Virus genome (UHGV): UHGV-0281096
Length of the DNA stretch: 24,424 nt
From: a virus
Reading direction: 5' to 3' (one strand)
This document shows, piece after piece, positions 20,840-24,424 of the stretch. Numbering within the stretch: the stretch's first letter is position 1; the number at the start of each line of letters is the position of its first letter. A program made the position numbers and the translations under genes. The notes below the pieces were generated by a model. It had not been told where the DNA came from. It saw only the letters and a list, made by a program, of their open reading frames with translations, and ran no database searches.

Positions 20840-20871
20840 TCCAGTAGAACCGTGTGTTCTCTGGAGGCGAT

Positions 20872-21525
20872 ATGGACAACATCTACATAGCTAGTTTTGG
20901 TGATATAGACATTCGTTTTGTTAATGTCGACGATGATGTGTTTGTGTCTCAAGGGGATTTTGTCCGTGCAATGGAGTCGTGTCTCACTGATGATATGAAA
21001 CACATAGCTGGTATTTTCATCAGTGGTGGTGTGAGAATTGTTGGCGATTCTAGTGATAGCCGCTCTGCAATACTTGGCGACAGTCTAATTGGGCCAGCTA
21101 TTCATTTTCATGCGGTAGGCAATATTCTTACCTCATTGGTTGAAATGAGTAATGAGGAAAACCCCTCTTTAAGAGAGAGTTGTTATCGCATGAATAGCTT
21201 ATTGCAGTGGTACACGATAGCTTTATCCAAGGCCGATGAGTATTTTGGTCGTGATGTTGTTGACTTGCTATCTTCAGTAAAAAGGCGTCTTGATCGACTT
21301 AACGCTCCATATACCGTAAACGTCCTTCATGATGGGGGTGTTTGGGTTGCAACATGCGATGAGCTTGGATTAGTTACAGAAGCTCCAGATTATGAATCTC
21401 TTACTGAAAGAGTGTGGGATGTCGCTGGAGATATGCTGGTTGAGAATGGTATAGATCAAGACGTAGAAAGCCTGCGCTTTTCCTTCGTTCAGGAGCAGGT
21501 GTCTGATGACAGGATGGCGCTATAA
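20872..21525 (+). CDS. Two-domain protein: N-terminal Bro-N-like domain fused to C-terminal HicB-fold (UPF0150) antitoxin-like domain
   Basis: ATG 20872 with GGAGG upstream; N-terminus IASFGDIDIRFVNVDDDVFVSQGDFVRAM resembles Bro-N pattern; C-terminal YTVNVLHDGGVWVATCDELGLVTEAPDYESLTERVWDVAGDML fits HicB N-domain pattern. Confidence 0.6.
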   Translation: MDNIYIASFGDIDIRFVNVDDDVFVSQGDFVRAMESCLTDDMKHIAGIFISGGVRIVGDSSDSRSAILGDSLIGPAIHFHAVGNILTSLVEMSNEENPSLRESCYRMNSLLQWYTIALSKADEYFGRDVVDLLSSVKRRLDRLNAPYTVNVLHDGGVWVATCDELGLVTEAPDYESLTERVWDVAGDMLVENGIDQDVESLRFSFVQEQVSDDRMAL

Positions 21526-21528
21526 GAA

Positions 21529-21726
21529 ATGGGGCAGGGGCTTTATCCAGAACTGAAAGAGTTATTGTTGTCCTACAACTGTTATTTTGTGCGTCAGGGT
21601 AAAGGTAGCCATGAGATATGGCGAAGCCCTATCACGAAAAAGGCATTTAGCGTTCCATTTACTATAGTTTCAAGGCATACGGCTAACGCAATTCTTCGCC
21701 AGGCAGGAATAAACAAGAAAATTTAA
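21529..21726 (+). CDS. HicA-family toxin (predicted mRNA interferase)
   Basis: 65 aa; ELKELLLSYNCYFVRQGKGSHEIWRSPITKKAFSVP...ANAILRQAGI matches HicA/YcfA-like consensus including conserved GSH; starts 3 nt after upstream stop. Confidence 0.7.
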   Translation: MGQGLYPELKELLLSYNCYFVRQGKGSHEIWRSPITKKAFSVPFTIVSRHTANAILRQAGINKKI

Positions 21727-22044: not shown

Positions 22045-22581
22045 TCAAACAACCCACCAGTTTGCCTGATTGGATACCAGCCTTGCAGTTTTTATGGAAT
22101 TAATTATGCCATGCTCAAGAGCCTTGTTAGCATCCAAAATGGTCGAGTCTGCTATCAGGGATGCCCACCTAATATGGGTTCCGATGTCGATATTGAACGT
22201 CTCAACGAAGCGATCAAGATCGTTATCGAGGCATTTCCCGTACTCTCTCAATCTGGCATGGTCGGCGGCTGGGGAGGCAAAGCACCATAATAGAGGATGT
22301 AACAGGAATCTTGATAATGGGTTTGCGAAACGTTCTGAGCCAGCCAGGAAAACGATATTAGCTATGGATTCAACATTGCTTATGTTGTGAGTTCTAACGG
22401 TAACAGGGAGTGACTTAAGAAAGTTATACGCAGTAAAGCCAGCGGCAGTTTCCCCTCCCTGACTTGATATATGGATATTTAATTCAGTTGCGCCTTGAGA
22501 TAATGCGGTGAGACAGTGGTTCTGAAGTTGCCCAACAGTGGCAGTGTTAACGGGGCATAAGAAATGAATTGTGTGCAGCAT
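22045..22581 (-). CDS. ClpP-fold (S14-like) serine peptidase
   Basis: 178 aa; hand alignment to E. coli ClpP core: IHISSQGGETAAG vs YINSPGGVITAG, ESIANIVFLAG vs ASMGAFLLTAG (Ser), FLLHPL vs MIHQPL (His), ADSTILDANKALEHG vs RDRFLSAPEAVEYG (Asp); TAATG overlap with mnt stop. Confidence 0.7.
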   Translation of the reverse strand: MLHTIHFLCPVNTATVGQLQNHCLTALSQGATELNIHISSQGGETAAGFTAYNFLKSLPVTVRTHNISNVESIANIVFLAGSERFANPLSRFLLHPLLWCFASPAADHARLREYGKCLDNDLDRFVETFNIDIGTHIRWASLIADSTILDANKALEHGIINSIKTARLVSNQANWWVV

Positions 22582-22835
22582 TATTTATCATCCTTGCCAT
22601 AAATCTTTTTAAGTGTCTCAAACACAACGGCCTTGAACTGCTCTGCTTGCTGATCAGCCAAGCGTTCAGCTTCGTCTCGATAGCCTGCACTCGGTGATGG
22701 CTTTGAGAGAGCATCCTGAACGATTTGTAATAACTCAGAGTTCATTGACCTTCCGTTAGCCTCTGCTCTTAATTTCAATTTTTCTCTTACTTCCAAAGGC
22801 ATACGGAAGTTAAAGTGCGGATCGTCTCTAGCCAT
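22581..22835 (-). CDS. mnt: Mnt repressor (Arc/MetJ ribbon-helix-helix)
   Basis: 84 aa MARDDPHFNFRMPLEVREKLKLRAEANGRSMNSELLQIVQDAL... very close to P22 Mnt as recalled. Confidence 0.85.
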   Translation of the reverse strand: MARDDPHFNFRMPLEVREKLKLRAEANGRSMNSELLQIVQDALSKPSPSAGYRDEAERLADQQAEQFKAVVFETLKKIYGKDDK

Positions 22836-22858
22836 GCCATCACTCCAAGTTAGTATCT

Positions 22859-23116
22859 CTAACTTTCGTCTTTATTGTTGCTATACATGCATTTCAACTT
22901 CTCAACATCATGTTCAAGATCTATCAATCGTGATGCTATAGTTGCAAGGTCTAGTGCTTGAATGTGTTTATTTTTTTCGGTCCATGCTTCAAGTGCCGCG
23001 ACCATCTCAGCATTTAATGAACGAGAATTAGCCTCAGCCAGTTCAATAAGACGTTCCTTTATCTCTACAGGAAGCCTCAGATTCACTTGAGGGTTTTTGT
23101 ACTTACGATCAGACAT
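22859..23116 (-). CDS. Arc/Mnt-family RHH protein, paralog 2
   Basis: Start ATG 23116 (M3 of track ORF); PQVNLRLPVEIKERLIELAEANSRSLNAEMV is an RHH motif; divergent helical C-terminal region. Confidence 0.65.
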   Translation of the reverse strand: MSDRKYKNPQVNLRLPVEIKERLIELAEANSRSLNAEMVAALEAWTEKNKHIQALDLATIASRLIDLEHDVEKLKCMYSNNKDES

Positions 23117-23133
23117 CGGCACATCCTGAATAA

Positions 23134-23373
23134 TTATTTACCATACATGGTCTTTAGCGTCTCAAGTAGCGCCTCTTTGAATTTATCAGCTTCTTGGTTA
23201 GCGAATCCTTCAAGTGAGCGAGAGCCATCAAGATTATCAACATGTTTTTGAAGGATAAGCACGATCTCTGAGTTCATTGATCTGCCGTTTTTATCCGCTT
23301 CTTGCTGAATGCGTTTCTTTAAATAGTCTGGAATCCTAATCCCCAATGGACTGATATCTCTTGCACCTTTCAT
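23134..23373 (-). CDS. Chimeric RHH repressor: Arc-like N-terminus with Mnt-like C-terminus
   Basis: Start ATG 23373 with AGGAGG 5 nt upstream; N-terminus MKGARDISPLGIRIPDYLKKRIQQEADKNGRSMNSEIV parallels the arc product; C-terminus GFANQEADKFKEALLETLKTMYGK parallels Mnt C-terminus. Confidence 0.7.
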   Translation of the reverse strand: MKGARDISPLGIRIPDYLKKRIQQEADKNGRSMNSEIVLILQKHVDNLDGSRSLEGFANQEADKFKEALLETLKTMYGK

Positions 23374-23481
23374 TTCTCCTCCTGCACGCTGTGCATAGCT
23401 ACACAGTGTAGGCAAAAAAATTTTGACTTTAAATAAACACGGTGTAGTATTTAGTTATCACGGTGTAGCAAGTGAGGGGAA
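23374..23481. promoter_or_regulatory. Divergent Pant/Pmnt-like promoter-operator region
   Basis: TTGACT (23423-23428) - 16/17 nt - TAGTAT; direct repeats CACGGTGTAG at 23438-23447 and 23459-23468, degenerate copy CACAGTGTAG 23402-23411; imperfect palindrome CTGTGCATAGCTACACAG 23389-23406. Confidence 0.45.
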
Positions 23482-23622
23482 ATGAAAGTTAGAGACATCG
23501 CTCCATTAGGGATTCGTATCCCGCCAGAGATTAAAGAAAAATTGAAGGAAAAGGCTAAGGAGGAGGGCAGGTCTTTAAATTCAGAAATAGTGCAGCGTCT
23601 TATTCGCAGCCTAAAAAGTTGA
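23482..23622 (+). CDS. arc: Arc-like repressor (RHH)
   Basis: Not in ORF track (<60 aa). Hand translation [46 protein letters not shown]; GAGGGGA RBS; same family as P22 Arc, sequence diverged. Confidence 0.7.
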
Positions 23623-23651
23623 AGCCCCAACTGCGGGAACAGTCAGGGCTT
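23621..23651 (-). terminator. Hairpin in arc-ant spacer acting as minus-strand terminator (candidate 3' end of a sar-like antisense RNA)
   Basis: GAAGCCC (23621-23627) / GGGCTTC (23645-23651); on the minus strand followed by AACTTTTTAGG. Confidence 0.35.
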
Positions 23652-23684
23652 CGGTTGTCAGTAAATCCGTGGAGAAAAACCAAC

Positions 23685-24424
23685 ATGAATAGTATAGCAA
23701 TTTTAGAAGCAGTGAACACCTCTTACGTACCATTCAACGGTCAGCAAATTATCACCGCCATTGCTGCCTGAGTTGCATATGTTGCGATGAAGCCAATCGT
23801 TGAAAACCTTGGAATGAGCTGGTCAACGCAGCAAACAAAACTCATGAAGCAGATTAGCAAATTCAACTGTGTTCATATGAACATGGTTGCCGCTGATGGG
23901 AAGCTTCGTAAGCTACTCTGCCTTCCTTTGAAGAAGTTAAATGGATGGCTGTTCAGCATCAACCCTGAGAAAGTTCGTGCTGACATCCGTGATAAACTGA
24001 TTCAGTACCAGGAGGAATGCTTTAGCGTGCTGCATGACTACTGGACTAAAGGCTATGTAGTTAACCCACGCAAATCTAAAAAGGCGTTGCCGGGTAAAAT
24101 CACCACTGAACAGCAGGAAGCCATTAAACAACTCGTCATGAGTCGCGGTCAGTCTCTGCCAAAAGAAAAACAGGCTAAGGCGATGATCACCATGTGGTCG
24201 TCACTGAAATCCCATTTTGGATGTTCGTACAAAGAAATCAGTGAGGAGCAGTTTACAGAAGCACTGTCACTTGCAGCTCGAGTTCCGCTTGAAGGTGAGT
24301 TCATCGGCAAACAAGAGAAGAAAACCAACGAGCTTTCTGCAAAAGAAGCAAACAGCCTTGTATGGTTATGGGATTATGCCAACCGCTCACAGGCATTATT
24401 CCGCGAACTGTATCCGGCGCTAAA
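23685..24424 (+). pseudogene. ant: Antirepressor Ant, interrupted by in-frame TGA at codon 29 (23769-23771); runs off window end
   Basis: ATG 23685 with GGAG upstream; [28 protein letters not shown]-stop; same frame stays open for 217 more codons to window end; translation is P22 Ant-like. Confidence 0.7.

Follow-up and report, generated by a model that had tools for sequence, protein, structure and literature searches.

The immI system of phage P22 and the operators of ribbon-helix-helix proteins are textbook material. The P22 maintenance repressor Mnt, which has a ribbon-helix-helix domain and a C-terminal helix, is encoded divergently from an operon with arc, sar and ant. Knight and Sauer are said to have identified Arg2, His6, Asn8 and Arg10 as the residues through which Mnt contacts DNA. 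Arc and Mnt have separate operators on Pant, the promoter of arc and ant. Oarc (ATGATAGAAGCACTCTACTAT, pattern TAGA-N5-TCTA) lies between the -35 and -10 elements, and the palindromic Omnt (GGTCCACGGTGGACC), with the core CAC-G-GTG, lies at the promoter start. In the P22 record X01916, Pant reads TTGACA-tgatagaagcactctac-TATATT-ctcaat-AGGTCCACGGTGGACCT. The Mnt half-site is GTGGACC (PMC2726951).

Phage CUS-3 has an 'ant moron' with stacked mnt-like genes, including a P22-type mnt (Villafane et al. 2008, PMC2629481). The epsilon34 paper describes CUS-3 as lacking arc (PMC2629481); in contrast, we find in it an unannotated 46-aa Arc-like ORF (MKVKTLRMPEKL...). Two direct copies of the 9-mer ATGCGTACC, 21 bp apart, straddle the -10 of its TTGACT/TACTAT promoter (about positions 2000-2220 of locus L001).

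In phage lambda, the operators OR1-OR3 lie between the divergent promoters PRM and PR and are common to CI and Cro.

Here we compare these systems with a 24,424-nt stretch of viral DNA (the window), in which three related boxes lie between divergent repressor genes. The boxes are almost certainly, judging from their sequence, position and conservation, repressor-binding sites that switch off the antirepressor promoter. A literature search returned no match for the box sequences or for Mnt-like/Arc-like control of an antirepressor in modules whose repressor carries the P-x-G-x-R motif, and neither the literature nor solved structures yielded the box operator sequence, the three-site architecture, the probable sharing of sites or the family-wide covariation of residue and base described below.

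Gene content

The window is the late region and immI region (mnt/arc/sar/ant) of a P22-like (Lederbergvirus) Escherichia coli prophage, close to CUS-3, phiv205-1 and HK620. In megablast searches the region matches mnt-arc-ant of P22, epsilon34 and CUS-3 at 86-95% identity over part of its length. Open reading frames and Pfam Arc domains give the P22-type immI layout, in which divergent ribbon-helix-helix genes enclose a control region some 100 bp long and ant comes after them. With CUS-3 the window has in common the phage type, the stacked mnt-like genes, the P22-type Mnt and a further ribbon-helix-helix protein that we call RHH2. Unlike the window, CUS-3 has a different small rightward ribbon-helix-helix protein and lacks the promoter-proximal repressor that we call RHH3.

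Leftward from the control region, the minus strand encodes RHH3 (79 aa; 23134-23373), with the N-terminus MKGARDISPLGIRIP and a Pfam Arc domain; RHH2 (85 aa; 22859-23116), which resembles the second 'mnt' of CUS-3 and has the Arc-like strand PQVNLRLP; and the P22-type Mnt (84 aa; 22581-22835), which has the contact residues R2, H6, N8 and R10 in common with P22 Mnt. A ClpP-like protease gene (22045-22581) follows directly on the same strand. It is also found downstream of RHH3 in the PhiR12 phages and in E. coli prophages, as a conserved partner. Further left, 20854-21726 encodes a DUF1902-containing protein of 223 aa and then a 65-aa protein of the HicA toxin family; from these similarities the pair is likely a HicAB-type toxin-antitoxin system inside the 'ant moron'.

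Rightward, the plus strand begins with a 46-aa Arc-like ribbon-helix-helix protein (23482-23622), the first gene of its operon. The sar antisense RNA follows on the minus strand (23617-23684; Rfam RF00262, 95.6 bits against a gathering score of 43), with a terminator-like hairpin in its region at 23621-23652. The antirepressor gene ant (23685-24424, plus strand) extends past the window end. Its codon 29 is an in-frame TGA (23769-23771); the codon is GGA (Gly) in P22, in epsilon34 and in all other related loci that were compared, among them a contig whose immI region is 99.2% identical. The antirepressor is thus probably inactivated, or the TGA is a sequencing error.

An inverted duplication (23330-23381 and 23474-23522, 78-93% complementary) takes in the ribosome-binding site and roughly the first 15 codons of both RHH3 and the Arc-like gene. 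Because its arms lie on both sides, the whole control region sits inside a large imperfect palindrome.

By sequence comparison, RHH3 appears to be a full-length Mnt homologue. It aligns with the window's Mnt by BLASTP at 38% identity over 80 aa (E 7e-17), and the alignment extends through the predicted C-terminal helix (QEADKFKEALLETLKTMYGK against QQAEQFKAVVFETLKKIYGK). The N-terminal ribbon-helix-helix domain matches Pfam PF03869 (E 5.6e-8), and the closest solved structure is 1mnt (E 4.6e-5). The C-terminus gave no match to Pfam PF11423 (Repressor_Mnt), even at E values up to 10. A single-sequence AlphaFold2 model of moderate confidence (pLDDT 68) places helices at 16-29, 33-48 and 62-77. 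At the Mnt contact positions in the alignment, RHH3 keeps both arginines and has Pro for His6 and Gly for Asn8.

The arm and beta-strand of RHH3 (ARDISPLGIRIP) are almost identical to those of the 46-aa Arc-like protein, both fitting RDI(A/S)PLGIRIP. From this likeness, the two paralogous repressors may share their DNA sites. The Arc-like protein also reaches the cutoff of the NCBIfam family YlcI/YnfO, which includes uncharacterised proteins of K-12 cryptic prophages; those proteins may be remnants of similar antirepressor control modules.

Boxes in the control region

The preliminary description of this DNA had reported two exact direct repeats 21 bp apart and a third copy with one mismatch. 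We find exact copies of CACGGTGTAG at 23438-23447 and 23459-23468, 21 bp apart start to start, and the third copy, CACAGTGTAG, at 23402-23411. The imperfect palindrome also reported there exists as CTGTG-N8-CACAG at 23389-23406. The key element is instead an overlapping perfect 13-bp palindrome, CTACACAGTGTAG, at 23399-23411, which is centred on the third copy. We call this palindrome O1 (centre 23405). The exact copies belong to the 13-bp boxes O2 (AAACACGGTGTAG; 23435-23447, centre 23441) and O3 (TATCACGGTGTAG; 23456-23468, centre 23462).

With its centre base left free, the box CACNGTGTA has four matches in the window, the palindrome being counted on both strands. All four fall within 23400-23467, less than 70 bp, and there are none elsewhere in the 24 kb. 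The expectation is 0.39, and no shuffled sequence of 100 reached four matches. A repeat and palindrome search of the 108-bp control region gave no further element. A candidate degenerate fourth box, O0 (CACGCTGTGC; 23385-23394), lies between O1 and the ribosome site of RHH3, and we list it with low confidence. At its position PhiR12-type relatives have CACGCTGTAG, a 9/10 match, and one distant locus (L177) has a perfect TACACCGTGTA 18 bp to the left of O1.

The preliminary description had read the repeats as a direct-repeat arrangement rather than a palindrome. This does not hold for the family: its operator is the 13-bp palindrome CTACA(C/T)-N-(G/A)TGTAG. The left arm has been lost in O2 and O3, where only the core and right arm remain, and for this reason the two boxes resemble direct repeats.

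Promoters

A promoter scan of 22400-23800 gave a single sigma-70-like site, the predicted Pant (23423-23450, plus strand), with TTGACT at 23423-23428, a 16-nt spacer and TAGTAT at 23445-23450. An A/T tract at 23414-23422 precedes it. O1 is centred 18 nt upstream of the -35. O2, 36 bp from O1, fills the spacer and overlaps the -10, and O3, 21 bp or two helical turns further on, lies around the expected start site. The exact repeats therefore do bracket the predicted -10 and start of the arc-ant promoter, the first lying in the spacer and over the -10 and the second at about the start. The idea that operator-like sites lie in the divergent promoter region and are placed to block the promoter likewise agrees with the way O2 and O3 straddle the predicted Pant.

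No leftward promoter with at least 9 of 12 matches was found in the same interval. There are two candidate -10 elements. One is TACACT, read on the minus strand within O1 (TACATT in relatives of the Ser class described below). The other is TAAAGT at 23426-23431, which would give a P22-like overlapping geometry. Neither has a convincing -35. In some relatives a minus-strand TTGACT formed from GTAGTCAA was considered as a leftward -35 and rejected, since no -10 follows it.

Comparison with P22 and CUS-3 operators

The identification of CACGGTG as the core of the P22 Mnt operator is correct: X01916 reads AGGTCCACGGTGGACCT just downstream of the annotated Pant -10. The window and P22 are also alike in having a divergent Mnt-type repressor, a palindromic site with an identical CAC-G-GTG core at the arc-ant promoter start, and arc-like, sar and ant genes downstream. 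As Oarc and Omnt do on the P22 Pant, O2 and O3 sit on the Pant of the window. Unlike P22, the window has three sites rather than one, two of them half-degenerate and one upstream of the -35. The outer bases are TAG in the boxes and GACC in Omnt, and the corresponding strand residues are Pro/Gly in RHH3 and His6/Asn8 in Mnt.

These likenesses raise the question whether the boxes are operators of the P22-type Mnt, perhaps cooperatively with the other paralogues, as the preliminary description had suggested. The shared core, the retained Mnt contact residues and the placement of O3 at the P22 Omnt position agree with such a role, and O1 matches the half-site GTGGACC at 5/7 positions on the left and 4/7 on the right. 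O2 and O3, on the other hand, match only 3/7 positions in the left half-site and share with Omnt no more than the 7-bp core and two further bases; outside the core the boxes do not match Omnt. No site within three mismatches of the 15-bp Omnt occurs anywhere in the window, and the complete CUS-3 genome, which encodes a P22-type Mnt with the same contact residues, also lacks Omnt. Among 193 loci, exact Omnt is present only in P22 and epsilon34, and in both the P22-type Mnt is promoter-proximal. The boxes are moreover intact in modules that have no P22-type Mnt, and their sequence co-varies with the arm of RHH3-type proteins (both described below). For these reasons the tie to P22 Mnt is not upheld, and we consider it improbable that the boxes belong to the P22-type Mnt; weak cross-binding of this protein to O1 is possible from the half-site matches.

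The other known operators of the group are also missing: Oarc has no match in the window, and the CUS-3 9-mer is absent from the control region, where the boxes differ from ATGCGTACC in sequence and resemble it in that two direct copies 21 bp apart straddle a -10.

Related modules

Three lambdoid phages, PhiR12_1, PhiR12_4 and PhiR12_5, have RHH3, the control region and the Arc-like gene, with neither P22-type Mnt nor RHH2, in a module located between tail genes L and K. All three boxes are intact in them. The control region was found in 19 of 5,426 complete E. coli genomes, about 11 of which have the same layout without the extra repressors. In E. coli MS 196-1, 261 bp are identical to the window.

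More distant loci retain the boxes. At 73% protein identity (L021), O1 is exact, and O2 and O3 each have C in place of G as centre base. In L076, whose flanks differ and whose proteins are only about 36% identical, we find CTACACAGTGTAG, TTGACT, TACACGGTGTAG and, 21 bp on, ACACGGTGTAG. L108 has CACCATGTAA, then CACTGTGTAA 37 bp on and CACAGTGTAA 21 bp further. An exact-pattern scan of viral contigs for two boxes gave 52 matches, mostly coincidences in GC-rich coding sequence; the relevant ones were the window-type loci, L076, L105 and L108/L111 only. A scan of genome contigs with RHH3 returned only two distant alphaproteobacterial matches.

Natural variants of the window-type module occur in L009/L115 and L019. 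One has O2 as CACGGTATAG and a -35 changed to TCGACT, and another has O3 as CATGGTGTAG. They are possibly decaying or operator-constitutive alleles.

To these searches we added a scan of viral contigs by protein similarity alone, blind to the motif. It gave 80 loci with 66 distinct combinations of protein and upstream sequence; 57 distinct modules could be anchored and are the basis of the geometry counts. From left to right a module consists of a leftward Mnt-like protein beginning MKG(A/M)(R/S)xIxPxGxRxP, which RHH3 fits, then O1, an A/T-rich stretch, TTGAC, O2, the -10, usually O3, and a small rightward ribbon-helix-helix protein. The distance from the O1 centre is 18 nt to TTGAC and 36 nt to the O2 centre in all 57 modules, as it is in the window (centres at 23405 and 23441, TTGACT from 23423). 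The O2 and O3 centres are 16, 21, 22, 24 or 27 nt apart, or O3 is absent.

So variable a distance does not support a special significance of the 21-bp spacing. We considered a phased cooperative unit of O2 and O3 and rejected it on this range of 16 to 27 bp; because 21 bp is not conserved in the module family, an obligatory unit of this kind is unlikely. Looping between O1 and O2 was likewise rejected as the reason for their invariant distance, since at 36 bp, or 3.4 helical turns, the two sites face opposite sides of the DNA. The geometry of the promoter is the better explanation. The fixed spacing of O1, -35 and O2 fits promoter constraints, under which O2 would have to overlap the Pant spacer and -10. 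The centre base of O1 is A in 57/57 modules, as expected if it also supplies the last T of a leftward -10; that of O2 is G, A, C or T.

Covariation of arm residue and box

The box sequence follows residue 5 of the arm of the left protein. Among 44 distinct modules with Arg at this position, 38 have CAC-N-GTGTA boxes and none has CAT-N-ATGTA; among 19 distinct modules with Ser, all 19 have CAT-N-ATGTA (consensus CTACAT-N-ATGTAG) and none has CAC-N-GTGTA. The O1 core CAC-A-GTGTA is invariant in the 38 modules of the Arg class. The window agrees with this class, as RHH3 has Arg5 and its three boxes are all CAC-N-GTG. Six Arg modules are exceptions: in three the gene does not adjoin the control region (L138-L140), and three have a hybrid CAC-N-ATGTA box (L173, L175 and L182). 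The left proteins that accompany the hybrid boxes begin (M.K)VRDIAPYGVRMP.

When the arm is masked and a neighbour-joining tree is built, at least eight switches between Arg and Ser are seen, each accompanied by the matching change of box class. The figure of eight is approximate for a tree of short proteins from mosaic phages, in which the two classes are in any case clearly interleaved, and the covariation itself is a correlation among mosaic, related phages. It points to the arm residue reading the base pair beside the box centre. In modules of the Ser class, the right-hand protein often retains Arg at the arm position. Residue 5 therefore cannot be a universal reader of the base pair at +/-1, and for the same reason the sharing of boxes by the Arc-like partner is uncertain.

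These results bear on whether the Arc-like protein alone uses the boxes, autoregulating Pant as P22 Arc does, with RHH3 acting elsewhere or at a different site. In its favour, this protein has the matching arm and strand, and O2 lies, as Oarc does in P22, between -35 and -10. The box class, however, tracks the arm residue of the left protein and not that of the right, and the right-hand proteins are of several unrelated strand types. O1 and O2 are kept in L126-L136 and L159-L180 even with an unrelated right-hand strand, and the 108-bp region of the window has no other candidate site for RHH3. We give exclusive use by the Arc-like protein only a small chance of being right.

The boxes of L159-L180 and L126-L136 are composite and asymmetric, with O1 as GATATCAC-A-GTGTA and O3 as an inverted TACAC-C-GTGATATC, 16 bp from O2. 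The GATATC part of these boxes may be the site of a second protein.

One could also ask whether the repeats bind anything at all, being a by-product of a 21-bp tandem duplication or chance similarity in an AT-rich spacer. O2 and O3 do lie within a 19-nt imperfect direct repeat that is 79% identical. Against this origin, the clustering of the boxes is far beyond chance, they are conserved where flanks and proteins have diverged, and their sequence co-varies with the protein. We regard a lack of binding function as very improbable.

Model of regulation

We consider it likely, from the conservation and covariation, that the boxes are operators of the adjacent RHH3, which would repress Pant and autoregulate the leftward operon. 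The three boxes would be copies of the 13-bp operator CTACAC-N-GTGTAG, perfect in O1 and reduced in O2 and O3 to CAC-N-GTGTAG without the left arm. RHH3, made from the prophage, would act as maintenance repressor for the immI module. By analogy with Mnt, a single RHH3 tetramer probably occupies each box; affinity would be lower for O2 and O3 on account of their degenerate half. On O2 (spacer and -10) and O3 (around +1), RHH3 would occlude Pant. On O1, where the leftward -10-like TACACT sits, it would limit its own operon; this autoregulation is weakly grounded because the leftward promoter has no convincing -35.

The 46-aa Arc-like partner probably also uses the boxes. Its arm and strand are those of RHH3 and the 108 bp hold no other repeat or palindrome, so the same boxes are its most likely sites. 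Made from Pant, it would probably bind them and shut Pant down after infection. The arrangement would differ from that in P22, where Arc and Mnt have separate operators: the window has no TAGA/TCTA operator, and the Arc-like protein and RHH3, with arm and strand in common, probably do not have separate ones.

The CAC-G-GTG core that the boxes have in common with Omnt probably goes back to R2 and R10 (Mnt numbering), the arginines that RHH3 has retained from Mnt, and the altered outer bases, TAG for GACC, would accompany the changes of His6 to Pro and Asn8 to Gly.

In its logic only, the module is like the lambda OR region. Three sites lie between divergent promoters and would be read in common by two proteins encoded in opposite directions, of which one would maintain lysogeny while the other acts after infection. 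The lambda proteins are helix-turn-helix and control a lytic operon, whereas those of the window are ribbon-helix-helix and would control an antirepressor; the sharing of sites is established for lambda and inferred for the module.

Additional repressors and implications

The two distal repressors have no evident target of their own here: for RHH2 and the P22-type Mnt the window contains neither the Omnt or Oarc of P22 nor a box like those of CUS-3, and RHH2 has no cognate-looking site within it. Since the Mnt contact residues are kept and yet there is no Omnt locally, the distal Mnt and RHH2 seem to be uncoupled from the promoter nearby. A joint reading, in which a lambda-like shared three-site operator is combined with decoupled extra repressors acting in trans, is tentative and as a whole rather doubtful. 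If it is true, the three operators would serve both RHH3 and the Arc-like repressor of the infection phase, with a different order of occupancy for each. Other P22-like phages that superinfect would have their antirepressor promoters silenced by the P22-type Mnt and RHH2, and the stacked repressors, with their several specificities, would shield the resident prophage from induction by antirepressors. The Arg/Ser arm switch, paired with the change from C:G to T:A in the operator, would then amount to a one-residue code by which ribbon-helix-helix arms recognise DNA.

Annotation pipelines call genes of the RHH3 type and their Arc-like partners just 'Arc family' or 'YlcI/YnfO'. The putative operator CTACA(C/T)-N-(G/A)TGTAG can now be assigned to this widespread and unstudied branch of Mnt/Arc proteins, which would control antirepressor genes in enterobacterial prophages, and a conserved three-site promoter architecture is defined for the P-x-G-x-R Mnt-like proteins. 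The natural covariation of Arg/Ser with C:G/T:A offers a clean specificity swap for asking how the N-terminal arms of ribbon-helix-helix proteins read DNA. As for the stacked Mnt paralogues that lack cognate operators, one may ask whether prophages collect repressors against the antirepressors of rival phages.
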